NCBI GenBank assembly: GCA_046482545.1
Contig: JAWOEX010000001.1
Location: 1-36,716, forward strand
Direction: 5' to 3'
DNA length: 36,716 nucleotides
DNA from: Candidatus Thorarchaeota archaeon
GTDB taxonomy: Archaea > Asgardarchaeota > Thorarchaeia > Thorarchaeales > Thorarchaeaceae
Shown one piece after another: positions 844 to 22,229 of this stretch (positions are counted from its first letter, which is position 1; each line of letters begins with the position of its first letter). A program made the position numbers and the translations under genes. The notes under the pieces are model-generated. The model had not been told where the DNA came from, made no database searches, and worked only from the letters and a program-made list of their open reading frames with translations.

Positions 844-2560
844 ATCCCACAGCGTATTTTATCGTCATTTCCCTCACTCGGAGGGACGTATTCGCAGTCG
901 TTACCTCTGCAAGACCAAAGCACCTGAATAGGATTTAAACCAAGTGTAATCTCTTTGCCAGACTTTTTTGATCTGGTTTTGAATTTCTTCAACGCATATG
1001 TGGATTGTCTGTCGGGTGATATAGTGAAAGAACTAGGTATTCCCATTGTTTTGGTAATAGCAGTCGGGTTCACAGCGAGCTCCAGAATTTCGGCCTCTAG
1101 CTGTCTTCTCGAAACCATCCTTACTTCCCACTCAACACACACTCGGGGCAATCGTGTATCTCCTAGGATACTCATTTTACGAGACGTATCTCTTAGGAGA
1201 AGCCTGCCATACAAATCACACATCAGCTCCAATGCGAGGTTGTTAATACATGAATAAATACTCTGGTAGCCTTATTAGTCTAATTCAAACGTATGGAAAT
1301 AATACTTACATATTGTTCCAAAAAATGTAGTATATGAGGAACTTGGGTTGGTCAGCCCATATCCAAAGAGCACTTTCTCGCGAAACCCTCAGTTAAATAA
1401 TCAGTATGTCAACAACTTCGACAAAGAAAGAGCCGCCTTGGAATGGCTCTTCCTGCATTCGTTACTGGATATCTTGTAGGTCTGACCGAAGTCGCACATG
1501 CTTCTCATCATGACCAAGAATAATTGAACAAGTCTGTATTTGGAAATACAGCCAGAGCTCTTATAGAGTCCCAATCTGTTAGTCTCCAAGGTGATACCCC
1601 TTGAAAGTATGTCAACTGTCTGCCATTCTACTAATTGCCGTTATTCTCCCTACTAGCCTCTGAGAACTGATTTTGGGTACTAGTCGAAAACAACATCTGG
1701 CGTTAGCACTTGTTTCTCTGCCTTGGCTTCAAGCTCTTCAACGCCTACTTCCGGTTCTAAACCCTTTCTTTTCAATATGGCGAGTAGAAGAATATTGAGG
1801 ATAAAAGCAATCAGCAGCAGTGGAAGTCCTTGGAGGAAATTATAGATTACACCCGCAATTAGTGATCCTACTGCAAGGGATAGCATTATTGCAGTTTTTG
1901 TCAGACTGAGCATTTTACCCAAGTCTTGACGAGGCAAGTATTTCTGAATATATGTATCAATGAGGCTTTGCCATAGAACATCATTGATTGATTTCATAGC
2001 CGTTGCGATAAAAGCTAGTGAAAAAATCACTTTCAAACCGGGAAATATGGTATCGACAAAAGAAACCCACGCAAGTGGGGCCGCATAGGGAATATACTGG
2101 GCAATGATGAGCAAGCCAATTGCTATGGGCATTACCGCATAGATAACTACTGTCAGTTTGTATCCCCCATTCTTGTCGAATAGATGTCCGATGAGCAGCG
2201 TGAGCGGCACTGAAATCAGTAATGTTATGAATAGAATGAGGTTGATTTCATGCATGCCGAAATCCAGCGTCTCGTTCATATAGTATAATTCTGTGAATCT
2301 GTAGAAGCTGTCACTTAGTGCGTCAACGATCAGAACCGCCAAAAACACCGGGAAGACTTTCGCCAAGAGCTTCAATCCTCGAGAATTCTCGGATTTAAAG
2401 TCCTCAAGAATATGGTCTACATCTTGTTGTCTCTCAGGTATTTTGGTTGATTTCAGTACTGTTGCCCGGATGACTGCGCAAACCGAGTATAGGATACCGG
2501 CTATAAAAAGCAGGATTCTCATCACATCTACAAATACCCCTCCAAGATTCAAGAATAGGC

Positions 2561-2630
2561 AAGTTTTACACAAATCCTAAAAAAATCCGAGTGGAAGAGT
2601 GTAAAATATCTGTAAGATTTCCTGTAAGTG
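2561..2630. repeat. Left-end array of ~11-bp-spaced TGTAARAYTT-like motifs in inverted and direct orientation (copy 1)
   Basis: aagttttaca 2561, aaatcctaaa 2572, then tgtaaaatat 2600, tgtaagattt 2611, tgtaagtg 2623. Confidence 0.7.
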
Positions 2631-2655
2631 CTACTGTGACCGAGGGCGGTAGGAC

Positions 2656-2662
2656 TTTATTA
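2656..2662 (+). promoter_or_regulatory. Putative archaeal TATA box for the element RNA (copy 1)
   Basis: GGAC(T/C)TTATTAGGCCCA is conserved in both copies within otherwise divergent sequence. It lies ~25 nt upstream of the conserved TTTCAGTAGGACTAGG where the structured region starts. Confidence 0.6.
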
Positions 2663-2685
2663 GGCCCAGTACGAAATTTCGTTTC

Positions 2686-3114
2686 AGTAGGACTAGGCAA
2701 GTGGGCTAGTGTTGTAACACGACGCACGCGGCCGAAAGCTGCAAGGAAGACTCGTTCTTCTAAACAGAAGTCCTCACTCTCCAAACAAGGGGCTTCATCG
2801 AGCTCTGGAGAGTCCGCGGCTGTTCACCTTGTCCGTAATGGACCTCCTCAGCTACGGCGACAAGGCTGAGGTGGGTGATCATGACCACGCCGTGGCAAGA
2901 ACTGTGGAAGACCTCGCTGTTGCCGGGAGTGATGACCCGGGACAACGACAGGAGACAGAAACCAGGACCGCGGGAGGAACCCTGTTCCGGTGAACGCGGA
3001 CAAAGCCCCTGCTGACTCACGGGCCTACGGGTACCGTGGGAGCGGCGATGCTGGCAGGGGAAGGGTGGAACACAGAAGTTTCATGCAGTTCCTAGAACTG
3101 TAAGAAATGGGTTA
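2686..3114 (+). ncRNA. Large structured ncRNA of unknown family, copy 1
   Basis: GC-rich stems with compensatory substitutions relative to copy 2. The cUACGg tetraloop (3025-3030) and G-U wobbles indicate the + strand. Ends are approximate. Confidence 0.8.
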
Positions 3115-4136
3115 TCAAGAGAATGCTCACGACGTAGAGGGGAACCAGACCGAGTCCCGTACCGAGAGTGAACAGACTTTGTGCTACTCCACCGAATTTC
3201 CTATCGATTTGTTCCATATAGTAAGCTCTGCCGGCTGTTCTCGTAAAAGCTGAAGCCCCGATAATTATCATTGAAACAGCAAGTGTACGAAAATCACCGG
3301 AAACTGAAAGCAAAAGGTATCCTGCAGATGATAAAGCCATAGTCCCAACAGCAATCTTTCTCCTATCGTAGTTGTCAGCGAAATACCCCGAAACGAAGTT
3401 GCCAACAAGTCTGATTCCAAAAAGAACTGAAAACAGTATCCCTATCAGAACATACGAAATGCCAATATCTCTGAAGTAAACGGCAAAGTAGCGGTCTAGG
3501 ACTAACATACTGCTGTATATCCAAACGGTAATGAGATATACTGAGCAGTTTCGTTTTGCAGTGACTCCCCTAAAGGATTCCTTCCAACCAAGACTAGTTG
3601 CTTCTGGCTCCTCTGACGCGGAGTTATCTCTCTTTTCAGTTTGGCATACTTGAGCTGCCCCCATGAAGTTACCAGCTCTGAGAAAGGGTGGGCGTGACGT
3701 TGCTTGCTTCTAGGCGAATCAGGTTGGGCATTGAATTTTCCTGAATCAGTGTGAATCTCTCACTTGATGTCCGATGAATTTCGTTTTAAAAAATTTCCTC
3801 AAACGTACTCGTGCTATAGATAGAACGGTGAACGAAAATAGAGAATAGCGGCCAATGAAGCATGTAGGGATTGGTGATAGTAAGCCACTTTCGCCATATG
3901 GCGTTAAGATATCGATCGATGTATGTAGCAAGTCTGGATGTCCAGTTTCGGCACAAAGCTAACTTTCGAGTCTCCTATCTCGTTATCCTCGGTTCTTTCA
4001 TTTCCAAACAGAAGACTAGAGAGACATTGCAGATACATCGTCTGCGAATGGCCGAAGGAGATAAGTAGGATGCTTCGAGATAGGTGATTTATCTAAGGCT
4101 CCACTTGGAGCAGAGAAAAGAAAGTAGGACAGATTA

Positions 4137-6107: not shown

Positions 6108-6133
6108 CATCTGTATAATAAAAGCGATATATA

Positions 6134-6442
6134 ATGGAACGTTGGAAAGTATCAAATACTTGCGTCTATAATTTAGGTTATCATTTGATATGGTGTCCTA
6201 AATATAGAAGGCCAGTATTAGTTGATGATATTGCTGGGAGGCTAAAAGAACTCCTACGGGAGAAAGCATCTTCAATATCTGTATCAATTAAAACGATGGA
6301 GATATTGCCTGACCATGTTCATCTTTTTGTTAAGACGGTTCCGAATGCTCCACCCCATTGGATTGTACAACAACTGAAAGGTTATACTTCGAGAACATTA
6401 AGACAAGAGTTTTCTTCATTATTGAAAATGCCAACTCTCTGG
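6134..6442 (+). mobile_element. tnpA: Truncated IS200/IS605 Y1 transposase
   Basis: YNLGYHLIWCPKYRR, HUH motif DHVHLFV and LKGYTSR..PTLW. Similarity stops before the catalytic Tyr helix. The segment is AT-rich. Confidence 0.9.
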
Positions 6443-6962
6443 AACAACCTTTGGACTCTTCCATATTCTGATAATGGCAGCTCTCATATTTTGTGGACTG
6501 GGCGACATCGCCATGGAATACGATATTTTACCGGGCCTGGGACTTTTTCTAATTGCTCATATTCTCTTCACAGCAAACTTTGGATTTCACAGTCTGGCCA
6601 ATCTAGGATTGGTCCCTATTCTTGCATTTATTCTGGCTATGATTTTTCTTTCTTGCTATATTTTGTTCTTTCACAAGTATCTCCAGGGTGCAGACGAACC
6701 GACGGAATTACTCCCGGGTGTGGACGTTTACGCAATTCTTATTTCGCTGACTCTTGGGTCTTCTCTACTTCTTTGGCTGTCTACTGCTACCATGTTGGGA
6801 TTTCTACCTCTTTTGGGAGCAGGTTTCTTCATCTTCTCGGATTCGCTAATCGGTGTGCGAGAATTCCATCATAGATTCAAATACGATGAAACGCTCACTA
6901 TGATTACTTATTATCTCGCGGTCTTCCTGTTATCACTTGGAAGTATTGTGTACGCTCTCTAA
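6443..6962 (+). pseudogene. 5'-truncated YhhN/TMEM86 (lysoplasmalogenase-like) membrane protein
   Basis: ALIFCGLGDI..GLGLFLIAHILF..GAGFFIFSDSLIG..MITYYLA are YhhN motifs. The N-terminal helices are missing and replaced by the tnpA fragment. Confidence 0.75.
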
Positions 6963-7034: not shown

Positions 7035-10000
7035 CTAATCCATGCCGTCGAGTAAGACATCAATCTCTGCCTTGGTCAATCCTTCCGCATTCTCCATTAT
7101 GAGATCTATTTCATCTTCCGCGATTCCCAGTTTCTCAAGGCGCTCTCTTATATCCGCGAGTTCCTGTTTTGTGACTGTTTCTTTCTTCTCTTCTTCGTCC
7201 TTCTTCTCGCTTATTTCTTCAGCGCGCCTTGCCTTTTCCTGTGTGATAACTTCCATGACAAATCCTGGTCTCTCAGATGGCTTCATTCGGAACAGGTCTT
7301 GACGAAATGCATCGACATCTTCTTCGGTGAGGCCAGTGATTTCAGCGAGTTCGTCTAGAAGATCCTCGATTTCGGGGGCCTCTGATATGATGGTCTCTTC
7401 CGGAACCTCATCTATAGGCTTCTGGATATTGTAAACGCTCAGAGATTCATTAATCATATTCTGGAGCATTTCATCTCTGCGAGAGACCTCCGGAGCATCG
7501 GGTACCTTTCCGCGAGATACATCCTTAATCATTCCATTGAGCCAGCGAATCATTTTCGGGACACTGAAAACTTTCACATACAGAAGAGCACCAATGAGCA
7601 GCAAGATTATTGAAGCACTACCACCCAAGGTCAAAGCTGTCATGAGTGGGTCTTGGGTTTGCGGGGTTGCTACAACGGTGATAGTAACCTCCTGGCTCTC
7701 GTAGTTGTTTCCTTTTGATGCACGTATAGTGATATCAAAACTGTAGTCAACAGGAACAACAAATTCGATAATGTAGGTTCCCTTTTCGTCTCCCTCAGTT
7801 ATGGTATAGTCTTCCTCCTTGATGAGTAACTCTGCCTGTTCAACAACGATTTGTGCATCGCTGATGGGTAGGTCATGATCAATATCGAGGAAATCAACAC
7901 TGAATTGAATGGTTTCACCAACTATGGTTTGAATATATGGGTCACTCGGCGAGAGCTCAGTTTTGATTCTCCTTACAATCACAGTAACTCTTGCCGTTGC
8001 GGTAGTGTAGTTGGTTTTACTCAATTCAATCTGAGCAGAATATGTACCTAATGGGATGTTGTCTGGAATCGCAACTGAGTAGTTTCCCTCTTCAGTGCTA
8101 TTTAGAGCAATCACGCCAAATGACCAAGTGAACGAACCTACGGCGGTGGACACAGGCTCATCGTAATATGTGTCATTGTAGAATGCACTGATGGTGTACG
8201 AGTCGCCAACCGGTATTTCGTAGAGATCTGCGACAATCACCTCAGTTGGTATCTTCGATACCTCTAATGTCACAGAGGTTGTTCTTGTAATGTAGTTGGA
8301 TTTAGAAGCGCTAACAAGAACATCATATACGCCCGGTCCAACATCATTACTATCCAATGCAAGACTGTACAACCCATTTCCGATTTGCTCTGCGTTTCCT
8401 CGTCCCGAAATCCATCGAAACTCAAGTGTAGCATTCTCTATGCTCCTGTTGTAGTACTGATCACTGAAATTGAACCAGAATGTTGCTGACTGCTGATGTA
8501 CGATTGTCAGTGTGGTGTTCAGCGGTGAGAGCACGCTTTGTATCGGTGAAATTTCCGCTAGTATGATTGCCGTGCCGGTTTCGTATCCTGGTTTACTGGC
8601 AACGACATAGATTGAGAATGAACCTGCTCTGAACAGAGAGCTGTCAAAGCTGCCCTCGTAAATTCCTGGCTCGGTTTCCGTAAGTGTACCGTTGTAGTTA
8701 GCGTCACCAAAGCGGAATCGTGTATTTGCATTGCTTACAGGGACACCACTTTTTTCATCTGTAAAATTCAGGTTCAAGTGAACCTCTTCTCCGTAGACTG
8801 CCCGCACTGTTGCTTCTCCGATAGGAATGAGATTTGTCTCAACAAGTTTAACATCAAGACTTAGGTAGAGGCTTGCTTGAGCATGGTTTGACTTGTTTGC
8901 CCTAACGTAGAGCGTGTATACATTAACTTCGGCACCTGTAGTATTGATAGTGGTAGTGTAGACGCCTGGGGTTTCAGTCGCTGTCAGAACTCCTTCACCG
9001 TAGTCCCAGAGATACGATATTGTTGCATCCTCTATTCCCGTATCATTAGTGTCAACACAATAGTGCACAGTGAGATTGACAGGCTCTCCACTCGAAATGC
9101 TGTACGAGTATTGTTCGTCAGCGGTGCAGAGATCAGTTTCAAGTACTGACAGCACCAAGGTGATTTGCAGCATTCTACTTTCATAATTCGTCTTGTTTGC
9201 ATTGACCGTCACTGTATGTGTACCGATATCAACGAACGAGGTGTTGATTGTTCCGTTGTATGTTGTTCCATCGAAGTCTAAGTTGAACACCTCTCCCTTG
9301 AGAGTGGCTGTGACAGTTGCATTCTCTACTGGTACTTCCGGGTATTCCTGTTGGTACCAGACTGCCAAATGGAACGGATCACTCCAATTTAGCGTCACCG
9401 CGGTACTTTCTGGTTCTAATCGGGTTATCACTTGTTTAAGATCGATGTCTACAGTGAGGGAAGCACCACTATAGTCTTCTGCATCAGCAGATATATCATA
9501 GGTATATGTGCCGTACGGTGATTCCCATAGTAGGAATGTAACATTGTACTTACCGTCTCCTGTCGGAGAGAATATTGCTTCTGGGGTGCTGGGATTAGTG
9601 TATATCTCTGCTCCAACCACCAGTATATCATGGTCAATATCCTCATACTCGACAATGACAGAAACGTTCTGACCTGCAACTCCAGAGGTATCCGAATCAA
9701 TACTCATTGAAGTGCGAATTTCTCTGACTCTGAATTTCACCTTCGCACCAGCGTCGCTATGTAGATCTTTAGTGGCTGTGAAAGTAACTTCATAGCTGAG
9801 AGTGTTAACATTTTCTGTGAACAAAGTAACAAGAAAGCCACCCGTTGAGCCATGTGTCCAGTTCCAGCCATAGTCCCAGTCGGTCGACAAATTGGCTTGC
9901 GTGACATTGATTTCATGATCGGTATCGCGGTATGAGAGTTCAAGCGTTACGTTATCTCCTACAGGGACGATACCCGGTTCAGGAGGAGTAGCGCTGGCTG

Positions 10001-13000
10001 ATGTTGATATGAATCTGATAGTGATTGACACAGTCGTATCCTTAATTGCATAGAAGGACTTATTCAATGTGAACTGGATTTGATACTTGCCAACAGATGG
10101 AACGCCATCGGTTTCCAAGGTGACATTCAAACTACCATCACTCAGTTCCTTGTACGACCATCCATAGGTCCACGAAGTTTCGATACTGGCATTAGATATC
10201 ATCAGGTCATGGTCGAGATCCAGATATGCTACTCTTATGCTTACATTGTCTCCGACCGGTACAATTCCGGGATCTGGGGCGTCTGTAGTAACTTGGGTAT
10301 AGACGTTTCTTACAGTTGCCCTGATTCCGGTATCGTTGATAGCGGGGTAATAGGGTATGGCGGTCTCATTCCAAACCACATCGATTTCGAAATACACATC
10401 ACCCACATAATCGAACTGCGAGCTGTTGATGGTAAAGCTGTATACCCCAGCATCTGGATAATCCAGAGTATAAACGAGTTCCTGACCAGTAGTCTCATTC
10501 AGGGTGGTAAAGGAGATGAATACATTGCCGCTTTCATTGGATATTCCTTTGTCATTCACGCTATCCCGATATTCAAACTCAATCGTAATATTGTCACCAT
10601 GTGGTGTGTGTGCAGGGGGGGTATACGTCAGAATAGCATTCGCTCCAGTGACGGAGACATCGAAATCTAAGGAGCGGTTCGAATAGAATGGAGCGCCGAG
10701 TACCCAGTTGAAGCTCGCTTGGAAAGTGAATTGTCCCGTTGCGTTGAGCGCTGTGACATTTATTGACATTACAAATTTTCCGGGTTCGGTTTCTTCAATC
10801 CACCAAGGAACAGAGATATTTGTTGTAATTCTGATACCTTCTTCAGTTGTGTTTGTAACTGGCTCCTCAGAATCTCTGTCCTCAAAATAGAAAGTCACGG
10901 TCGCGTTATCACTGTAGCTTGTCTGCGCGATTGGTGCTGTTGTTAATTGGGTATTCCGGGCCCGAACATCACTATCAATCAGTACCGTCTGATTCTGATA
11001 GTGTGACTCTGTCATTCCACTTACTGAAATCGTGAGAATATAATGGCCTATAGTCTCAAGCTTCGATGTATTGACACGAAGCTCGTACTGTCCTTCACTT
11101 GTCGATGATATGGAATAGTAGGAAGAATCCACCGGTGTACCGTTAACTGCGTCTAGACTGAAGTAGGATTCTGCATCTGTTATGCCCGTGAGCCCGGCAT
11201 CAACGTCAGTGTATTCCAGTTCTACTGTCATATCATCTGAATATGGTGTTTCAGGAGGTACCACATAGGTCAATCTGGTTGCCCTTTCTCGAACCTGAAC
11301 CGTAAGTGATTTGCTTCTGTTCGCATAGAATGGTTCTCCATAGTACTCTGCTGATACATCTACTGAGAATTTTCCGATGTTCCCAAGAGCAGTACTGTCA
11401 ATACGGGCCGTGTAGTCACCAGCACCGTGATCCTCGACCCAGTAGTTAATTTGCTTCACTAGGCTCTCGTTTGCATCTGTGCTGATAAGAGTGAAGTTGA
11501 CTCCAGGCACGCCTGTGGAGTTTTCAACTCCTTCAAAATAGAAGGTAATGGTAACATTATTGAGATAGGGTGTCCTCCCCTGCACCTCGTAAATCATTTG
11601 AGTTGGTCTCTGGAGGACTCTGCCTGTAATCGACCTTGTTGTTGTATTCGCCCAATAGTAAGGTGTATTCGGATAGATGAACCTGATGTCCAAACCATAG
11701 TCGGAAAGCTCCCCCAGTATTCCGGTATCGAATGAAACATTGTAGTTACCCGATCCCATGTCAACAATCGAAATGGCACTATCATCAACATCTTCTGGTT
11801 GTGTAAAGGTTACTGATAGGTTCTGCTGCATGTTTTCGAGGCCGGTACCATCGGTTCCGTTATCCAAATCAATCAAAGTGACCGTGAACGAAACCTTGTC
11901 AGCATAGTATACGGACTGGGGTGGCTCTATGCTTAATTCTACATTGCGATGCTCAACCCGAACTTGAATTGACCTACTCCCATCAGATAGCCACCATTCA
12001 GACGTGGAGTTCAACTTGACCTCTAAGTAGTACTTGTTGGGCTCACCCAGTGCTTCGGTACTTATGTTTAGCAAGTAATCGCCATCACCCAGATAGGTGA
12101 ACCAGAAGTTGCTGTCTTGAACGAGGTCTTCTGCAGAGGTTGCACAAGAGAGATACAACTCCGCGCTCGAAATTGGGTCAGCGGGATCCGAATCGATATC
12201 AAGATAGGTCAGATTGAAAGTCATGAAGTTTCCATAAGCTACCCCGGGGACAGAGCTATAATCAAGCGTGGTTGTTCGTTCGTCTACGGTGCCGGTTACA
12301 TTCCTAGACACCAAGGAGTAATAGGGGCCAGTTGTGGTGTGATTGAAGACGACTCTGACTTTGTAGGATCCAACGCTTCCCAAACTCGAAGTGTTAAAAC
12401 TAACGCCATACTGTCCGTCCGTTCCACTCAGGTATTCCACAGTGGGGGTCCCACTGGCACCTTCGGGCAAGAGAATCTCGACGGAGATGTAGCTAGCATT
12501 GTTGTTTATGTACTCGAGTGAATGAGAGTCTTGAAGGACGAACGAGAAATTTACATCTTCCAAGTAGGACACTGGTAGCGGAAAGTCAATGTCCATATTG
12601 GCGATTCTATATTCAATAGTGACTGAAACACTTACATCTGTCTGGTTCTCATAGAATGGAGTTCCTGACCAGATGACTTCCAAGTCAATCGAGTTTACGC
12701 CCAGCATATCAGTTTCCTTAGTCATTATTTCAACTGTGTAGAAATCTTCTGCAGTTGGAGTGTAATTCACGGAGTATGTGTATCCGCCTAGGACCGTAAT
12801 ATTGAGAGGTGCGCCAGTTACTAATTGGCTCTCGTTATCGAGGTCTACATACTGTAGGAACAGCGTAAGATTATCTCCATATGGCACAGGATCGGCTTTT
12901 ATCTGGGATATTGCTGTATCTCGAACCCTAACATGTATTGATACGCGTCTGTCAATTTGGTCTTGGTAGTATGGTTCTTGGTCAGGGTAGGTCCAGTTGA

Positions 13001-16000
13001 GAGTGATTTCAAAACGGTACGTTCCACATGCATCGAGATAGGTGGTATTGAGGAGCAAGAAGAACGTTGCATAAGTTCCTGTATCTGCTCCTTGAACGAT
13101 ATCAATTATCGCAGAGTCTGAGGTATTGAGTCCTACCTGATCTAGCGATACGACAGTAGCTGTTGCATTATCTCCAAGTACCACGTCGACAGGATCACCG
13201 GAATCGCTATCACCCCAGTAGAATGTTAAATTCGCTTGATTGCCGAAGGGAACCGGGTCTAGTGGATCCCAGCTAAACTCGGTTTGGGTTCCCCTGACCT
13301 CGAATCCTACTGAAATACTTTGATTCTGGAAGAATGGTGCCCCCGAGAATGTCATATTGATTTCTATATCAGTCACCACAAATGGGGTGAACTGGCTTGC
13401 CGGCATCTCGAGAATATACTCTCCAGGCGTTGCACTGGGTGAGACATAATATTCCGAACTATTCGTGGTTAATGTAATAGCACCCTCGTAAGTCGTATTG
13501 TCGATTGCAGCACCATCGTTGTCGGAGTCGGCATATTGAAGGATTACAGTTACATTATCTGTGTAGCCAACACTCGATATAGGATCATAGGTGAGCAGTG
13601 TATAGCGGTGTCTTACGTAGATTTTCGTGTATATGGTTGCATTCTTGTAATTCCCTAATTCACCAGAATTCTGCGTTTCAATTTTTACCCACACGTTTCC
13701 TATTGAATCCAAAGCTGAGGTATTCACTTCAACAGTGTAAATCCCTTCACCGTTATCAGTAATCATCCAACTTCCTGTGAGTGAGCCATTGACCACGACT
13801 AGGCTAGCGTTAGTTATTGTTTCACCGGTGCTAAGGTCCAAGTACTTCAATTCGAATGTAGCATTAAGGCCATATCCTGTGCTCTCTGGAGCGGAATACA
13901 ATTGCAGTTCTGTAGAGTGCCGGCTGATTGTAATTGAGACCTGTAATTCGCTGCTACCGTAGTATGGAATGATATAGTCATAGGTTACGTTGATGAATAG
14001 AGCATGAGTTCCTACCTCAAGGGAGTTGGGCAAGATGAATCTGTATGCATTCAGGTTTTCATCCCAATACGCAGTGGGTTCGCCTAGGTCCGGATTAGAC
14101 GCGTTTTCTCCTGCAAGTCCGATATGCAATCCACTAGTGGAATTCCTTACAATATCTGTAGTCTCGCCGTCTGTAATATGAATTGTAAGCTCAATATCTT
14201 CCTCATATGGAGTGCTTCCGGCTGGATCTGAGGTTAGAACAAGAGATCGATACTTCACCTTGAAGGTGAAGGTTGTGGAGGCATCGCTTTCATATCTTGA
14301 TCCCAAATACGTGGCAGTAGCTGTTAGTTGATAGGAGCCTGGTTCTAGGAACGCTGTAGTGTTGAGTTCAACCGTGTATGTGCCGTCTCCGTTATCCACA
14401 ACTGTATAATTACCACTCAAGGTTAGGTTTGGGTTTGTTATGCTGATATTGTTTCCATCCATGCCAATACTCGTGTCATCAATGAGGTCGGTGTAAGTCA
14501 GACTGAAAGTGACGTTACTGTTGTAGAAGGTGGGAACTGGTGCTGTGTAGGTGAGTTGTGTAGGCCGTTCAGTTATCTTGAGCGAAACGCTTTTGGTCTG
14601 GTTTTGATAGAATGGCGGTCCTGTCCATGTAATGTTGAGCTCAAGTGAGAATGTTCCCGTACTGCCTAGAGAAGCTGTATCAACAGTTATTGTCCACTTT
14701 CTGGTGGAACTACTGTAACTCTTGTTGTAATCAACTCCTAGATTGTTCAGCTGCACATAGAGTTCTGTAGAATTCTCGATTTTTGTGTTGGTTGGTGAGT
14801 CGTAGTACGCGAAACTGAATTCCGCTATTTCATCGTATGCAGTGTTCTGTGGCGGTGTTACATCCACAAGAGTTGTTCGAACTAGAATAGTTACTGTGAT
14901 GTCCAAGGTTTGATTCTGATATAGTGGATTCACATTCTTGCTCCAGTTCATCCAAAGACGGATGCCCATCTCGCCGCAGGTTGTTAGGCGGGAGGAATTC
15001 AACAAAATCCGATAGTGACCTGGGAATTCGTTCCTGTCAACTTCTGTGATGTTGAAATCAGATGAGGTGACAGGCTGTCCAGATGTCAGCATTTCTGCTC
15101 TTCCCCACACATCCCCTGTATCGTTGATTATACCCTCTCCAGTTTCCGCAATCTTGTACAGCAATGTGAAGTTGATTAGATCACCATAGTATACAGCCTG
15201 TGGGCTAACAGCCACGGTTAAGTCTGTGTCAGTGCCTGTTATTTCTACTGTGAAACTCTCGGTCAGGTTCTGGTATTTCAACGAACCAGTCCAATTAAAG
15301 TAGACAGTGAAGTTATATTGCCCTGTCCCGCCAAACTGGTCGGCAGGAATCAACACTTTGTAGTGGCCATCTCCGAGGTCGGTATTGGGCTCTACATACC
15401 ATATCGCTGAAGTGTTGTATTCGTTTTCAACATCAACTTGCACTTGGCCTGTGTCATTAGTGATGCCCTTAGAGAGTGAAAGGTCTTGGTAGAACATGGC
15501 AGCTGTTATGTTGACACCATAACCGGTATCTGTGACTGGTTCGTCAAAGGTTAAATAGGTTGAATGCGCCTCAATTTTCACCGTGATTTCAACGGACCCG
15601 CTTTCGTAATTCTGTCTGGTCACATTGAATTCAACGGTATAGGTGCCTAGTGTTGTATTGTCAAAGGTTAGCAGCTTGATGTCGTAGATTCCATCATTAT
15701 CATCATCAGATATCTCAACTCCTTCGGTCCAGTTGTGTGCGATGGTAGCATTCTCAACATTGATATCATGATCGACATCCTTGAACTGTAAGGTGAATGT
15801 AAGATTGGTATCAAGCGGTACGTTGAAATTGTAGCCTGATGCCAAAACATTCGTTTCTATGTATCTAACGGTGAATCTGACGGTGGTAGTTGCATTCTCG
15901 TAACCATCTCTTACACACATCGCAACAATTGTATAATCGCCGATATCGAGATTAGAGGTATTCATCTTAACTCTGTAGTGACCTTCACTCAGCCAAGTTA

Positions 16001-19000
16001 CCCAGAAATCTGTACCATTTTCGTATTGGGTGTCGTTTAGATAAAGGCTACTGAAATTGACCTCTAAACCATCGAGATCACGGTCTCTGAAAGTTATCTC
16101 GAATGTGAGGTTATCACGATAAGGAACTGGGTCTGGAGCAGGGGCATAGGCTTCAGTGTATCGTCTCCTGATTTCAATTGTGAGAGAGGCCTCGCCATCA
16201 TTGAAGAATTTGGTTTGGCCTGAGCCCGAAGTCAATACTTCTACCTGTTTACTGAATAACCCGACATTCCAATCGTCGGTATCAACAATGACTGTGAAGT
16301 TTCCGTTATCGTACGCCCATGTGGTAATCTCTTGTCCATCAATCACGATTTTGGTAACATTATCTGAGCTGATTATTGTTGAGCTGTCACTTATGTCAAA
16401 TATCCTAATCCTTACCGAGGTGTTATCTGACCATGGCGTTGACGCAGGGCGTATTGCTTCCACGCTGATGCTATGGCTGACAATTGAGACACTTCCGGTT
16501 GTCGAACTATCTGTGTAGTTCTTTATGGGGTCAACAAAGGATACTTCGAATACAAACAAGTATTTTCCAATGGACTTGTCAGCAGTATAGAGCGTTAAGC
16601 TAAACGTTCCTGCATCATAGCTGAAATCACTGCTAGTGTAAGTGGTTCCATTAACCGTCAAAAAGTCGATTTGAGCAAGCGGGACGACATTTGATTCATT
16701 GTCGAGATCAGTTATGGTTACATCTACTGTTGTATTTTTGCCCCAGCCCCTCGGTGATACAGGTGAGAATGTGAGTTGTGTTTTGTGCGCTCGAATGGTG
16801 ATATTTACCGTGGTCTCGTCATCGGTATAGAACTTGGTGTCATTCGAGTCCGTAGTGACTAGCGAGACGTTGAGCGAGGAAGAATCTACCATCCAATTCT
16901 CAGTGTAAAGGTCCACCACGAGCCGTGCCTGGGTATCGACCACTGAGTAAGTCCATTTTGAGGCGGTGAAATTTTCACTCCCGATTAACAGATAGGATAT
17001 GTTTGATTCTGAAATGACTTGATTGGAATTGTCCAAGTCACTCAAGTAAACCAATACTGTAGTGTTGCTGCCCCAAGGCGTGTTTACTTCTTGAGTCTGG
17101 GCAGTAACTAATAGGTTGTGCCGACGAATAGATAAGAAAACGTCTGAGTCAGCATCATCGTAATACTTGGTTGATCCACTGCCAGCTGAGTAGAGCTGCA
17201 CATTTTCTCTAACTTGGTCCTGAATTGGCCAGCTCGTCGTATCGTATATGACTGTGAGCTGAGCATAGCCTTCTTTCTGTTCGTATGTCCAAGAAGAGCT
17301 GGTAAATGTCTGGTTGCCGATTTCAACAGAACTGAGATTGCTTTCTGAAACTACAAGTGAGGAATTATCTAGGTCAGTGATTTCCATAACAATTGTTGTG
17401 TTCATCCCCCATGGTGTGGGTTGGGGTGTTCTGACACTTAGCTGTAACAGATGTGATCTGATGGTGATGGTTATCTCGCCACTAGCATCAGCATATAACT
17501 TGGGACCAGAAGTGGTGACAATACTAACATCATAAACACCCGAGCCTATAGCCCAGCTTCTAGTATCCACTGTCACCGTGAAAACACCATCGGAGAAAAT
17601 CCAGTCCGAAGCACCGAATGTCTGGCTTCCGACGGAAATCTGAGATATGTTACCCGGCCCGATCTGGTTATTGGGGTGGTCAAGGTCCTTCAGTGTCAGA
17701 GAGACGTTTGTTTTCCAGCCCCAGGGTGATTCATCAGGGTGATAGACGGTTGCCATAGTATCGTGTGCCCTTACTGTAAAGTCGACATCAACTGAACCAT
17801 CTTCGAAGAACTTGGATGCGCCGTCCCCTTCTGTGTAAACATCTATTGTAATCGCATATGTGCCTACGTTCCAGGCATTAGTGTCCAAGGTGAATACGAT
17901 GAAAGCAGCTTCAGAACCAGTATTATATGTCCAGTTTTCTGACGTAAAGATTTCAACTCCATATGATGAAGTTAGTTCAATCCTGGAAAAATTAGACTGG
18001 TCGATTATTTGAGAAGCGTTGTCAAGGTCCTGTATTGTTAGATTGAATTCTGTGCTGTTCCCCCAAGGTGTTTCTCTTGATGGGAATGTTGAAACACCTG
18101 TGTGATGGGCTCTCACAGTCACTGACAGCTCCTTGGACTGTGTTTGGTGCCCGGTTGCTGAGCAAAGTACATTCATTGTGTATTCACCGGGCTCAACACC
18201 GCGAGTATTGAGTGTCACTTGCCAAAAACCAAGCGTGGAGTTATACTCGGGTCCTACGAGCGATCCTCCAGTCTGCTCAGCCCAATCTATTTCTACTGCG
18301 ACTTCGGGAGCTGTATTGTCTATCGGTCTGGCTGCTACAAAACCCAGAAAGTCTAGATTGTACTGGAAATCAGTTGTATGCGTGGCATTGATACGAATCC
18401 GCACTAATCCTAAAGGTGATACAAACTGGGACGCAGAGAGGGTTCTCCATGTTTTAGTGACGTCCTCCGTTGATGAATAATCGGTTATGATTGACATCCA
18501 ATTCGCTGAGGAATAGTTGTAGACTTCGACCAAGCCTGATACGCCTGAAGTGTTGTAGTGCCCCTCAACCTTGTACGTCAAGGAGACCATATCTGAAGCA
18601 CTGAGACCGTAATCTGTAATATTTGTCTCACCAGTTAGAGAAATCTCAGCTCCCTCGCTACTTATGTTGACATAGTCATTGTTCGAGGAATAAGCTGCAT
18701 CTTCTTCAGGATCATTAGGAAGACCCGGATTAGCTGTTAACTGGCTGGGTTTCATGGCTACTTCATCATCGTAACTAAGAGCGATTTGCTTTGAATTACC
18801 CCAGGCGATGTCATAGTCTACACGCTCGCGTCTGTCCCCTAGGTGAACTATGAGATGGGTTCGCTCTTGCACTTCAACAGAAATTGATGTGGTTTCAACG
18901 AAGTCATAATACTCCTTGGTAACGTTTGTCGTTATGTCGTAGGTCCCTATGGATGCAAGTGAGGTATCGAGTGAACCTGCATACCATCCATTGCCTGCAT

Positions 19001-20867
19001 ACCCCATTGAGCCAGAACCGAACGTCCAGTTGTAATAAGCAGTACCACCGGATATCCCTAAACCCGTCTCAAGATCAACAAAGCGAATTCTGACCGAGAC
19101 TGGGTCTCCTCTATATGTCTGATACACTGCTGATTCTACTTCTATCGTGGTGTGGTGATTGATTGTGAACTGACTTTCTATCTCTCCCACTGCAGTACCG
19201 TTACTCCAAGATGCCGATACAACTATTGAACCTGGAAGCCAGCTTGGTAGAACAGTGATATTTGAGTTATCTGTCCCATTCTGGAAAGTGCAAATGCCGT
19301 CTACGTCAAGTGATTCATCTGCTTCAGCATATATGAGTGAATTCTCAGAATCGTAGAAACTCAGACTCGCATTCCCTTCCGTTGCAGGCGGATTTCCGAG
19401 GCTATCACTGAAACTTGTGTTGATCCTCATTCTGGAATCTGGATAGTAGGTACTTGCTTCGTACCACCCATCATTTTCTCCCTTCCAGAATGAGATTGTA
19501 CTTCCATAGTTCGGAGACGTCGAACTAATCTCCCACTGTCCATAGTGCGGTGTACCGCTTTCCCCAGTTCCAGCAACATCACAACTGAGTACACTTGTGG
19601 TTTCATCATAGCTCGCATTGTATTCGGTTGAATCATTTAGTTGCACTATATCGAAACCATCTAGCACTTCTACTGGTGTCCAATCGTCAGGCATTGATAC
19701 GTTGAAGTGTCTGTAGATGAACGGGTCACCCATCTCACCAACAAAGAAGTCAGAATCCCAGCTCACATTCGTCTCGGATGCTATACTGTATGTATTAGAA
19801 TCCAATTCTGTAAGTCGAGTTATTGGAGCGAATAAATCTAGTGTGAATTCTGTACCTGATTCATTAGCCAGGAATTCCAGTGTAATCTCATCGTTCCATG
19901 AGCCGTCGAGCGTAGCGTGTCCCTTGCCATCTTCTCCGAATGTGAACGGAACAACGTTGGATATATTGTTGTTATCCCGTACTCTTAGGTTTACGGCCTC
20001 GGGTTTCTGAGAAGTTCTCAGTGTCAAACTTACGTCATCACAATACAATACACCATCAGTTTGGAATTGAGTGTCAGCAAAACCTCGTATCCCGAATGCA
20101 ATATCCAAATCCCCTGGAAATGTATAGTCTGTTGGGTCTAATTCGAGTGAATACTCCTTCCAGTCTTGGTTAGATGAGAATCGGTTACCTTCTGTTGGCA
20201 GTTCATAAAGACTCCCGTTGACATAGACATACGGCATTGCATTTTGACCGTTCTGACCGGTTGAGGTAGTTATACGAAATGTCACATTTAGGTGTGCAGA
20301 AGCTGTCCCGCCTTCGTCTATGTTAACCGTCTGGTTCCAAGAACCCCAGTGGTCATAGCCTATATTTCCTCCAGATTTTCTCGTAATTCTGATCATCTCA
20401 TCTTCATACTCCTCAGACAATACGTTCTTCGGATCGACTTCATATTTATTCCAGCCAGATATGGTTGAAAACTGACCATTTGTAACCCAGTCTTGAAGAT
20501 GGTACATTTCAGAACTGGAAGCAGTAATCTGAGTAGTAGTCCAACCAGTCGGGAGGTCATATGTTTCAGGATAGAATGTGTTACTTTCATTAGCTCTCGC
20601 TGTTCTCGGGTTGTATTGCCCTTCTGAGTACTCGATTACTGATAGAAGGCTGCCGCTGCCCGAGGCAGATACAGAGGAGCGGTCAACCATCTGGTCTTCT
20701 ATCTGTTCAATGCTTACAGGATCGGCATTGTAATCCTTTGGTGTCGTTGATTTTTCACCCTCTCCAACGGAGAACAGCTTTTGATTCATGCTGCCAAGGA
20801 AAATTGGTGCACAAAACACTAGGATCACTACTAAGACGCATCTATGATACTTCTTCATTGAAAACAC
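7035..20867 (-). CDS. Giant (4610 aa) single-pass cell-surface protein with tandem Ig-like beta repeats
   Basis: Signal peptide (MKKY..VLVVILVFC; ATG 20858 is a likely start). Tens of ~100-115 aa repeats (T-x-L..G-x-N-x-T..Y-x-D-x-D..G-x-Y..T..G-x-Y), many N-x-S/T sequons, a C-terminal TM helix (~7570-7645) and a charged cytoplasmic tail. Confidence 0.9.
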   Translation of the reverse strand: MFSMKKYHRCVLVVILVFCAPIFLGSMNQKLFSVGEGEKSTTPKDYNADPVSIEQIEDQMVDRSSVSASGSGSLLSVIEYSEGQYNPRTARANESNTFYPETYDLPTGWTTTQITASSSEMYHLQDWVTNGQFSTISGWNKYEVDPKNVLSEEYEDEMIRITRKSGGNIGYDHWGSWNQTVNIDEGGTASAHLNVTFRITTSTGQNGQNAMPYVYVNGSLYELPTEGNRFSSNQDWKEYSLELDPTDYTFPGDLDIAFGIRGFADTQFQTDGVLYCDDVSLTLRTSQKPEAVNLRVRDNNNISNVVPFTFGEDGKGHATLDGSWNDEITLEFLANESGTEFTLDLFAPITRLTELDSNTYSIASETNVSWDSDFFVGEMGDPFIYRHFNVSMPDDWTPVEVLDGFDIVQLNDSTEYNASYDETTSVLSCDVAGTGESGTPHYGQWEISSTSPNYGSTISFWKGENDGWYEASTYYPDSRMRINTSFSDSLGNPPATEGNASLSFYDSENSLIYAEADESLDVDGICTFQNGTDNSNITVLPSWLPGSIVVSASWSNGTAVGEIESQFTINHHTTIEVESAVYQTYRGDPVSVRIRFVDLETGLGISGGTAYYNWTFGSGSMGYAGNGWYAGSLDTSLASIGTYDITTNVTKEYYDFVETTSISVEVQERTHLIVHLGDRRERVDYDIAWGNSKQIALSYDDEVAMKPSQLTANPGLPNDPEEDAAYSSNNDYVNISSEGAEISLTGETNITDYGLSASDMVSLTYKVEGHYNTSGVSGLVEVYNYSSANWMSIITDYSSTEDVTKTWRTLSASQFVSPLGLVRIRINATHTTDFQYNLDFLGFVAARPIDNTAPEVAVEIDWAEQTGGSLVGPEYNSTLGFWQVTLNTRGVEPGEYTMNVLCSATGHQTQSKELSVTVRAHHTGVSTFPSRETPWGNSTEFNLTIQDLDNASQIIDQSNFSRIELTSSYGVEIFTSENWTYNTGSEAAFIVFTLDTNAWNVGTYAITIDVYTEGDGASKFFEDGSVDVDFTVRAHDTMATVYHPDESPWGWKTNVSLTLKDLDHPNNQIGPGNISQISVGSQTFGASDWIFSDGVFTVTVDTRSWAIGSGVYDVSIVTTSGPKLYADASGEITITIRSHLLQLSVRTPQPTPWGMNTTIVMEITDLDNSSLVVSESNLSSVEIGNQTFTSSSWTYEQKEGYAQLTVIYDTTSWPIQDQVRENVQLYSAGSGSTKYYDDADSDVFLSIRRHNLLVTAQTQEVNTPWGSNTTVLVYLSDLDNSNQVISESNISYLLIGSENFTASKWTYSVVDTQARLVVDLYTENWMVDSSSLNVSLVTTDSNDTKFYTDDETTVNITIRAHKTQLTFSPVSPRGWGKNTTVDVTITDLDNESNVVPLAQIDFLTVNGTTYTSSDFSYDAGTFSLTLYTADKSIGKYLFVFEVSFVDPIKNYTDSSTTGSVSIVSHSISVEAIRPASTPWSDNTSVRIRIFDISDSSTIISSDNVTKIVIDGQEITTWAYDNGNFTVIVDTDDWNVGLFSKQVEVLTSGSGQTKFFNDGEASLTIEIRRRYTEAYAPAPDPVPYRDNLTFEITFRDRDLDGLEVNFSSLYLNDTQYENGTDFWVTWLSEGHYRVKMNTSNLDIGDYTIVAMCVRDGYENATTTVRFTVRYIETNVLASGYNFNVPLDTNLTFTLQFKDVDHDINVENATIAHNWTEGVEISDDDNDGIYDIKLLTFDNTTLGTYTVEFNVTRQNYESGSVEITVKIEAHSTYLTFDEPVTDTGYGVNITAAMFYQDLSLSKGITNDTGQVQVDVENEYNTSAIWYVEPNTDLGDGHYKVLIPADQFGGTGQYNFTVYFNWTGSLKYQNLTESFTVEITGTDTDLTVAVSPQAVYYGDLINFTLLYKIAETGEGIINDTGDVWGRAEMLTSGQPVTSSDFNITEVDRNEFPGHYRILLNSSRLTTCGEMGIRLWMNWSKNVNPLYQNQTLDITVTILVRTTLVDVTPPQNTAYDEIAEFSFAYYDSPTNTKIENSTELYVQLNNLGVDYNKSYSSSTRKWTITVDTASLGSTGTFSLELNITWTGPPFYQNQTKSVSLKITERPTQLTYTAPVPTFYNSNVTFSLTYTDLIDDTSIGMDGNNISITNPNLTLSGNYTVVDNGDGTYTVELNTTAFLEPGSYQLTATATYLGSRYESDASTTFTFKVKYRSLVLTSDPAGSTPYEEDIELTIHITDGETTDIVRNSTSGLHIGLAGENASNPDLGEPTAYWDENLNAYRFILPNSLEVGTHALFINVTYDYIIPYYGSSELQVSITISRHSTELQLYSAPESTGYGLNATFELKYLDLSTGETITNASLVVVNGSLTGSWMITDNGEGIYTVEVNTSALDSIGNVWVKIETQNSGELGNYKNATIYTKIYVRHRYTLLTYDPISSVGYTDNVTVILQYADSDNDGAAIDNTTYEGAITLTTNSSEYYVSPSATPGEYILEMPASQFTPFVVTDIEINMTFSGAPFFQNQSISVGFEVRGTQTEFSWDPLDPVPFGNQANLTFYWGDSDSGDPVDVVLGDNATATVVSLDQVGLNTSDSAIIDIVQGADTGTYATFFLLLNTTYLDACGTYRFEITLNWTYPDQEPYYQDQIDRRVSIHVRVRDTAISQIKADPVPYGDNLTLFLQYVDLDNESQLVTGAPLNITVLGGYTYSVNYTPTAEDFYTVEIMTKETDMLGVNSIDLEVIWSGTPFYENQTDVSVSVTIEYRIANMDIDFPLPVSYLEDVNFSFVLQDSHSLEYINNNASYISVEILLPEGASGTPTVEYLSGTDGQYGVSFNTSSLGSVGSYKVRVVFNHTTTGPYYSLVSRNVTGTVDERTTTLDYSSVPGVAYGNFMTFNLTYLDIDSDPADPISSAELYLSCATSAEDLVQDSNFWFTYLGDGDYLLNISTEALGEPNKYYLEVKLNSTSEWWLSDGSRSIQVRVEHRNVELSIEPPQSVYYADKVSFTVTLIDLDNGTDGTGLENMQQNLSVTFTQPEDVDDSAISIVDMGSGNYNVSFDTGILGELSDYGLDIRFIYPNTPYYWANTTTRSITGRVLQRPTQMIYEVQGRTPYLNNVTITFYFEGVENSTGVPGVNFTLISTDANESLVKQINYWVEDHGAGDYTARIDSTALGNIGKFSVDVSAEYYGEPFYANRSKSLTVQVRERATRLTYVVPPETPYSDDMTVELEYTDVDAGLTGITDAESYFSLDAVNGTPVDSSYYSISSTSEGQYELRVNTSKLETIGHYILTISVSGMTESHYQNQTVLIDSDVRARNTQLTTAPIAQTSYSDNATVTFYFEDRDSEEPVTNTTEEGIRITTNISVPWWIEETEPGKFVMSINVTALNATGQFTFQASFNWVLGAPFYSNRSLDFDVSVTGANAILTYTPPAHTPHGDNITIEFEYRDSVNDKGISNESGNVFISFTTLNETTGQELVYTLDYPDAGVYSFTINSSQFDYVGDVYFEIDVVWNETAIPYYPAINDTGIRATVRNVYTQVTTDAPDPGIVPVGDNVSIRVAYLDLDHDLMISNASIETSWTYGWSYKELSDGSLNVTLETDGVPSVGKYQIQFTLNKSFYAIKDTTVSITIRFISTSASATPPEPGIVPVGDNVTLELSYRDTDHEINVTQANLSTDWDYGWNWTHGSTGGFLVTLFTENVNTLSYEVTFTATKDLHSDAGAKVKFRVREIRTSMSIDSDTSGVAGQNVSVIVEYEDIDHDILVVGAEIYTNPSTPEAIFSPTGDGKYNVTFLLWESPYGTYTYDISADAEDYSGASLTVDIDLKQVITRLEPESTAVTLNWSDPFHLAVWYQQEYPEVPVENATVTATLKGEVFNLDFDGTTYNGTINTSFVDIGTHTVTVNANKTNYESRMLQITLVLSVLETDLCTADEQYSYSISSGEPVNLTVHYCVDTNDTGIEDATISYLWDYGEGVLTATETPGVYTTTINTTGAEVNVYTLYVRANKSNHAQASLYLSLDVKLVETNLIPIGEATVRAVYGEEVHLNLNFTDEKSGVPVSNANTRFRFGDANYNGTLTETEPGIYEGSFDSSLFRAGSFSIYVVASKPGYETGTAIILAEISPIQSVLSPLNTTLTIVHQQSATFWFNFSDQYYNRSIENATLEFRWISGRGNAEQIGNGLYSLALDSNDVGPGVYDVLVSASKSNYITRTTSVTLEVSKIPTEVIVADLYEIPVGDSYTISAFYNDTYYDEPVSTAVGSFTWSFGVIALNSTEEGNYSVAIPDNIPLGTYSAQIELSKTNYTTATARVTVIVRRIKTELSPSDPYIQTIVGETIQFSVDFLDIDHDLPISDAQIVVEQAELLIKEEDYTITEGDEKGTYIIEFVVPVDYSFDITIRASKGNNYESQEVTITVVATPQTQDPLMTALTLGGSASIILLLIGALLYVKVFSVPKMIRWLNGMIKDVSRGKVPDAPEVSRRDEMLQNMINESLSVYNIQKPIDEVPEETIISEAPEIEDLLDELAEITGLTEEDVDAFRQDLFRMKPSERPGFVMEVITQEKARRAEEISEKKDEEEKKETVTKQELADIRERLEKLGIAEDEIDLIMENAEGLTKAEIDVLLDGMD

Positions 20868-21450: not shown

Positions 21451-21640
21451 CGTGGCTTTCTTTACGGGTAGGCCTTCTCAGAACACAGAGATACAGGCCG
21501 GTGTTTGGTGTTATCAGGTCTCTATTATGATATAAAATAAAGATGTTAACATGCATCCCATGTCTCTGTCAGTGCCAACCAATCAATATCTCTTTTGTGT
21601 AAAGATGGAAACCCTCATGTTTTCCAGTTCAAGAAAAGGC

Positions 21641-21708
21641 AAATCTTACAAAAATCCTAAAAAATCGGAGTGAAAATGTGTAAGATTTGTGTAAAACTTC
21701 TTGAAAGT
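21641..21708. repeat. Left-end ~11-bp-phased repeat array (copy 2)
   Basis: aaatcttaca 21641, aaatcctaaa 21652, then tgtaagattt 21679, tgtaaaactt 21690. Confidence 0.7.
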
Positions 21709-21734
21709 ACTATTTTCACGTCGAACGAGGGGAC

Positions 21735-21741
21735 CTTATTA
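21735..21741 (+). promoter_or_regulatory. Putative TATA box for the element RNA (copy 2)
   Basis: CTTATTA in the same context and at the same spacing as in copy 1. Confidence 0.55.
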
Positions 21742-21764
21742 GGCCCAATATGAGACTTGATTTC

Positions 21765-22204
21765 AGTAGGACTAGGGCGGTGGGCCACTCCCCCACGGGA
21801 GAAGCGCCCAGCCCCGAAGGCTGTGAGGAAGACCCCGTCTTCTAAGCAGAAGTCCCCACTCTCCCGCAACGGTTCTCCATCAGACCGGGGAGAGTCTGCG
21901 GCTGTTCACCTTGTCTGTAATGGGCCATCTCGGCGGCGGTGACAATGTTGAGGTGGGTGATCATGACCACGCCGTGGCAAGAACTGTGGAAGACCTCGCT
22001 GTCACCGGGAGTGATGTCCCGGGATGACGACAGGAGGAGGAAGCCAGGACCGCAGGAGGAACCCTGTTCCGATGAACGCGGACAAAGCCCCTGCTGACTC
22101 ACGGGCCTACGGGTACCGTGGGAGCGGTGACGCTGGCAGGGGAAGGGTGGAACACAGAAGTTTCCGCAGTTGGGTTCACTCACTCAACTGTAAGAAATGG
22201 GTTA
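21765..22204 (+). ncRNA. Large structured ncRNA of unknown family, copy 2
   Basis: Same stems as copy 1 with compensatory changes; the 3' half is nearly identical. Confidence 0.8.
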
Positions 22205-22229
22205 TCAAGAGAATCAGATTCTCGATATA

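Follow-up and report, generated by a model that had tools for sequence, protein, structure and literature searches.

The aCas1-TnpB arrangement of Asgard archaea has been described as a likely distinct transposon (PMC10691335), one in which relatives of Cas1, of Cas4 and of the Cas12 ancestor are united. The same study notes, for TnpB elements in general, that solo elements are moved in trans, and it proposes a 'hypervariable' stretch as a possible guide; target site, duplication length and core inheritance of aCas1-TnpB elements are not given in its main text. Casposases perform a staggered Cas1 strand transfer that needs no homology between donor and target (PMC6977970, PMC6614799).

This work describes two small elements in a 36,716-nt stretch of a Candidatus Thorarchaeota genome (GCA_046482545.1, contig JAWOEX010000001.1, positions 1 to 36,716), referred to here as the window. 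Judged by their sequence, both are gene-less, non-autonomous derivatives of the Asgard aCas1-TnpB transposon (PMC10691335), reduced to the ends and the tnpB tail with its omega-RNA. The kind of element is known from that study, whereas the non-autonomous form, a heritable 6-bp core and a candidate TAM are new parts.

The element is present at 2549-3120 (copy 1) and 21629-22210 (copy 2), and the copies are 80% identical to each other. As originally predicted, they have the same junctions, T-TCAAGA on the left (2548-2554; 21628-21634) and TCAAGA-GAAT on the right (3115-3124; 22205-22214). Copy 1, read on the forward strand, consists of a left hexamer TCAAGA (2549-2554), a 560-bp body (2555-3114) with left end, tnpB tail (2690-2984), omega-RNA and right end, and a right hexamer TCAAGA (3115-3120). 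It interrupts an MFS transporter gene on the reverse strand (1680-3664), both halves of which match Pfam MFS_1. When copy 1 and one hexamer are deleted, the MFS frame becomes continuous (S-I-L-L-N-L), and orthologs of the gene are uninterrupted and align without gaps across the site. An empty allele occurs in run X5, where a contig of a related strain (~2% divergent) joins 2548 to 3115; the joint skips 566 bases, its six letters fit either side, and one hexamer is kept. The insertion thus adds the body plus one hexamer. The predicted position of the empty site inside the MFS coding sequence, with I-L-L-N as host codons, is thereby borne out, and since the frame is restored and GAAT is present in the empty allele, GAAT is host DNA and not part of the element. 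For copy 2, our searches returned seven pattern matches, all unrelated, and no empty allele. Elsewhere in the window, strain X5 has 245 other bases in place of 6108-6438, and its contig joins 7006 to 20993, so that a 4,610-aa gene at 7035-20867 with weak MG2/filamin matches is apparently absent from this strain.

All features of copy 2 lie on the forward strand. Its left hexamer TCAAGA (21629-21634) is the duplicated target core and conforms to the family consensus TCNNGA. The host bases AGT at -3 to -1 (21626-21628) match the family bias (a purine at -3, not G at -1) and may act as a TAM or as a leader motif. The left end (21635-21715) contains a subterminal AAATCTTACA motif and phased repeats of AAATCTTACA in both orientations, features that the full-length C20 and C28 elements also show at their left ends. 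A decayed tnpB 3' tail (21769-22075) overlaps the omega-RNA scaffold; in tblastn it is 49-84% identical to three genomic TnpBs over their final ~90 residues. The 3' part of the scaffold and the right end (22076-22204) comprise a terminal stem with a GTTCACTCA loop, a CTGTAAGAAA motif and a terminal GGTTA. The right hexamer TCAAGA (22205-22210) is predicted to form the first bases of a TnpB guide, its start being placed by the terminal stem, and the GAAT flank (22211-22214) is shared with copy 1 at chance level.

In the body of the element, a left end and a right end enclose what remains of tnpB, its final ~90 codons, which are 49-97% identical to genomic TnpBs; in the family, the first bases inside the left end are variable. 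The RNA region coincides with this tnpB 3' tail, which makes it an omega-RNA; an Rfam search returned nothing relevant. The GTTCACTCA motif is found in copy 2 and in most full elements and is shortened in the copy 1 subtype. The longer elements on C20 and C28 have both ends in common with the window copies (74-88%) and carry tnpB together with a divergent gene of 1,400-1,900 codons. This large gene is paired with tnpB, and faces away from it, in 32 of 45 loci across the family, and the same holds for all four of its copies in the host genome. Apart from tnpB and the large gene, full elements contain no more than a single small ORF.

Several loci depart from this plan. In L012 (2010-3826; G000 C34), an AbiEi/AbiEii type IV toxin-antitoxin pair replaces the large gene upstream of tnpB. 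The TnpB of L005 (1153-2832) and its homologs have GRL instead of the usual RuvC-II glutamate, and the next motif keeps a conserved E (ExWTS), by which the active site appears to be rearranged. L015 (G000 C22:202864-204538) is a composite in which an outer left end bearing TCGAGA is separated by 1.1 kb of host-like DNA from an inner left end, and the right end bears TCGAGA as well, which suggests that host DNA was captured between ends. The right-end flanks of L011, L048, L049, L050, L051 and L075 show a full-element clade adjoining the 3' end of tRNA-Gly; the duplication is 33 bp in L048, 22 bp in L062 and 16 bp in L071, so that lineages other than those of the window copies use tRNA-like sites and have longer repeats. 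Finally, the right flank of L177 (G000 C18:5175-5212) resembles the left-end interior of the element (12/16; ~0.5% by shuffling) and is either a decayed tandem junction or an att-like target.

The product of the large gene was compared with known folds up to its C-terminal 700 residues. The model of its N-terminal domain (pLDDT 89.7) has structural matches to Cas1 catalytic domains only: the top 12 VIA matches are all Cas1 or casposase (Z 8.6-12.7, rmsd 3.0-3.8, 142-186 residues), among them the casposase structure 6opm (Z 10.4), and the next match has Z 6.4. E68, H156 and D166 are invariant in 32 sequences and, from the motif spacing, probably represent the Cas1 triad. The Cas1 domain, which is without the Cas1 N-terminal beta domain, is followed by a PD-(D/E)xK domain (Cas4 match, Z 7.9), behind which lies a RecA/RAD51-type fold (Z up to 11.8) whose Walker A is degenerate. 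Neither Pfam nor ESM Atlas gave the protein a name, and an HMM search of PDB sequences returned nothing, with no sequence-level match to a solved Cas1. Four divergent aCas1 genes (29-35% identity) are present in the host genome, and among 151 genomes the large-protein domain is confined to one family and one other genome. aCas1 is the probable transposase of the element, and the solo copies would be moved in trans by this large Cas1-like protein.

A profile search of the genome gave 104 matches (~100 copies), and 39 full copies from the host genome and two congeners were compared. Strong conservation is seen only at the TC..GA of the hexamer, and the duplicated site among the ~100 genomic copies is the 6-bp TCNNGA. 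The original prediction was an 11-bp target in which the match outside the 6-bp core most likely reflected target selection, with a quasi-palindrome TTC-AAGA-GAA. The 11-mer has no exact match within the window, as it is a reconstruction that appears only after removal of the element, and outside the hexamer the flanks of other copies are unrelated. The closest relatives of copy 1 (89-95% identical) have TCTT, ATAG and AAAG 3' of the hexamer. Full 11-base sharing is found in one of 79 same-hexamer pairs, which is the window pair itself; the chance per pair is 0.0024, and the probability of at least one such pair in 79 is 0.17. Shared right-flank prefixes of 6 to 10 nt were seen 195, 48, 18, 1 and 2 times, against 195, 48, 16, 3.9 and 1.0 after shuffling, and four exact 11-mers elsewhere in the genome are all empty of the element. 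The target is therefore the 6-bp TCNNGA with a weak flank bias, its true dyad is TC-NN-GA, and the remaining bases of the 11-mer are shared by chance. Measured against genomic TCNNGA sites as a baseline, T is absent at -3 of left flanks (0/68 versus 20 expected, p 7e-11); other biases of left and right flanks are A at -2, near absence of G at -1 and A at +2. Two of the five extra bases of the 11-mer, T at -1 and A at +2, correspond to such soft preferences of the family, and the other three do not. Past the hexamer, the element interior shows on average no homology to the host flank (p 0.47 and 0.58), so that the 8- and 12-bp repeats at full elements are read as hexamer plus chance.

The central NN of the hexamer takes at least eight values and is heritable along element ancestry, with each copy a separate insertion. 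Left and right NN are equal in 30 of the 39 full copies (7 expected), an agreement that a plain duplication would also give, whereas the link to ancestry goes beyond one. The nearest relative has the same NN in 18 of 30 cases by whole body and in 21 of 30 by left end (5.6 expected), and in 38 of 68 when left ends are considered (12.6 expected). All 13 pairs at ≥ 85% identity share their NN, versus 54 of 386 pairs below 80%, and the link is tightest to the left-end sequence. In the TACAGA lineage, the odd second base is kept as well. The orientation of the core is also fixed: the window-copy lineages have 16 TCAAGA and no TCTTGA in three species, and a copy of the TT lineage occupies another copy's left hexamer, TCAAGA, in the reverse orientation, in which the cores agree. 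As relatives share their NN in a fixed orientation, the core of the donor probably has to match the target. Such core inheritance would be new for a Cas1-type enzyme. The NN changes between sister copies, and the two full elements of the host genome with window-type ends have TCTGGA and TCAGGA, yet the most similar small copies have AA. The sample is small, and the repeat-rich assemblies may be chimeric or may lack an AA-type full element.

The two hexamers of a copy are unequal in 15 of 39 cases, and it is the right one that deviates from consensus (11:0); perfect hexamers are found at 59 of 71 left ends and 54 of 91 right ends. An element-borne left hexamer with a host-derived right one is contradicted by two contiguous orthologs, in which the host site is either identical to the left hexamer or closer to it than to the right one; in two further cases the flanks are non-contiguous. 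The deviation could be due to faster decay of a guide seed, to donor-borne right cores or to rearrangement. Copies are mosaic, likely through gene conversion.

The terminal stem is predicted to close at GGTT, just before the hexamer, and the TnpB guide would therefore consist of core and flank, with the upstream bias as its TAM. This candidate TAM is one reading of the flank bias, and a Cas1 leader motif (PMC6614799) fits equally well. Within the element, no guide segment had been seen by eye, and none emerged from column tests. Covariation was examined in 30 copies, a small number, but a guide would be expected to give near-perfect columns. No element column tracks any target position; against NN or flanks, even the best internal columns score inside the shuffled range or at its limit, and the best dinucleotide column reaches 13/30. 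Likewise, the interior of a copy resembles its own target no more closely than it resembles other targets.

We assign a probability of roughly 50% to an aCas1-type transposon that inserts into a 6-bp TCNNGA target by pairing of donor core and target core. The symmetric TC..GA would be read by protein, and the central NN (sometimes position 2 as well) would have to match the core carried from the previous site. The mobile DNA would bring this core in one of two forms, a joined right end-core-left end or 6-nt overhangs; the overhangs would pair with the staggered-cut target, and aCas1 strand transfer would complete best on a paired core, leaving one core on each side of the element. TnpB, with an RNA running from the right end into core and flank, would cut empty sites, the bias at -3/-2/-1 being its TAM or a Cas1-type leader motif; T at -3 of the right end would protect the filled site. 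The end motifs are inverted relative to each other and each is ~11 bp away from the core, an arrangement that a right end-core-left end junction would be expected to need. No such junction was found in metagenome contigs (contigs drop rare forms), genome contigs, 86 family genomes or the joints of four runs. Besides this missing junction, three points speak against core pairing: casposase strand transfer needs no donor-target homology, the right hexamer deviates where the two are unequal, and other genera have the same module at tRNA genes with longer duplications.

A less probable explanation, but one that merits attention, is a conventional target-site duplication of 6 bp, without any pairing, produced by several aCas1 variants that differ in the end subfamily they recognise and in their NN preference. 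Site-specific insertion with a duplication is known from casposases (PMC6977970), the genome holds four divergent aCas1 genes (29-35% identity), and the NN is most tightly linked to the left end. However, at least eight NN classes face only these four genes, the two full elements with window-type ends carry TG and AG and not the common AA, AA and TT would be expected to serve a symmetric enzyme equally well, and the NN changes between sister copies.

It is rather unlikely that insertion is guided by an RNA seed, with TnpB and the donor omega-RNA binding the TAM and a ~6-nt seed and positioning aCas1, as in CRISPR-associated transposons. A single mechanism would then explain why the core is inherited with its orientation and why the upstream bias is one-sided, and the closure of the scaffold stem just before the hexamer and the pairing of tnpB with the large gene would fit. 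Sharing of the flank beyond 6 nt would be predicted, yet flanks of close relatives agree at 1.31 versus 1.2 of 4 positions and same-hexamer pairs show no excess identity there either. Moreover, every NN is available among ~100 cassettes whose guides act in trans, so that lineage memory would need coupling in cis.

Mobilisation by another enzyme, either an IS200-like Y1 protein or a hidden serine recombinase, with the large protein as cargo, is improbable. A Y1 TnpA-like gene is present at 6134-6874 (246 aa, longer than usual), and the phased end repeats and matched central dinucleotide recall IS607. Yet this gene, the only IS200-like Y1 transposase of the genome, adjoins neither tnpB nor these ends, and the large gene with its Cas1-type triad lies inside the ends. 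IS605-type insertion makes no duplication and does not require the left core to equal the right one. In the 98.9% complete genome, no resolvase, IS607 or serine recombinase (PF00239, NF033518), IS110 recombinase (PF01548, PF02371) or tyrosine integrase was found. PF00589 has no match anywhere in this genome (G000), whereas 14 of 14 control genomes have one; XerA is missing from it or highly diverged.

The originally suggested choice of a fixed 11-bp target by an internal bridge- or seek-type RNA, as in IS110/IS1111, is very improbable, for although the window copies do share 11 bp and have subterminal inverted motifs at the IS1111-like distance of ~11 bp from the core, that sharing is at chance, the four other 11-mers are unoccupied, neither IS110 domains nor a covarying loop were found and the RNA is a tnpB tail. 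Other copies thus refute such targeting outside the hexamer; what stands of the suggestion is sequence-specific insertion and, likely, core-centred recombination.

Returning to the pairing of donor and target cores, each lineage lands on the six bases of its parent, which hints at a pairing step undescribed for Cas1-type integrases. We tentatively consider that the Cas1-fold integrase may be a homology-reading recombinase whose landing site is programmed by the donor core or, less likely, by the TnpB guide seed. If true, a Cas1-Cas4-RecA-like protein and TnpB would together form a transposon whose insertion is oriented and can be reprogrammed, and which would model how type V CRISPR adaptation arose from a transposon. 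What the design of integration and cleavage assays requires is available from the many small copies: ends, a 6-bp target, a natural empty allele and a candidate TAM.

Compared with known systems, the element is closest to the Asgard aCas1-TnpB loci (Cas1H-Asgard-1/-2; Altae-Tran et al. 2023, PMC10691335), with which it has in common a Cas1-fold gene by tnpB, flanking repeats and GTTCACTCA downstream of tnpB. The window copies differ by the loss of both genes, and the published 'hypervariable' stretch looks here like one arm of the terminal stem. With casposons (PMC6977970, PMC6614799) it shares a Cas1-fold integrase, a target duplication, a leader-like upstream bias and, in the elements of related genera, tRNA-gene sites. 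Here, however, no PolB and no true terminal inverted repeats are seen, the duplication is 6 bp instead of 14-15 bp, the Cas1 domain without its N-terminal beta domain is fused to Cas4-like and RecA-like domains, TnpB is carried and the core is inherited. In piggyBac (PMC7351741), a palindromic target likewise flanks the insertion in duplicate and stays with the ends on excision, but the enzyme is of the DDD type and the target stays TTAA whatever the donor flank, so that there is no memory. IS110/IS1111 elements (PMC11208160) resemble it in their core-centred insertion, subterminal inverted motifs and large RNA in a non-coding end. They differ in their DEDD/serine recombinase, their covarying target- and donor-binding loops and their 11-bp specificity, in place of which the present element has 6 bp. 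IS200/IS605 elements are set apart by the unlinked Y1 gene and by the 6-bp duplication that the empty allele demonstrates. IS607 combines a serine TnpA with TnpB, a right-end omega-RNA, phased end repeats and a core shared by donor and target; here no serine recombinase was found, and a 6-bp core with a variable centre takes the place of the fixed GG.
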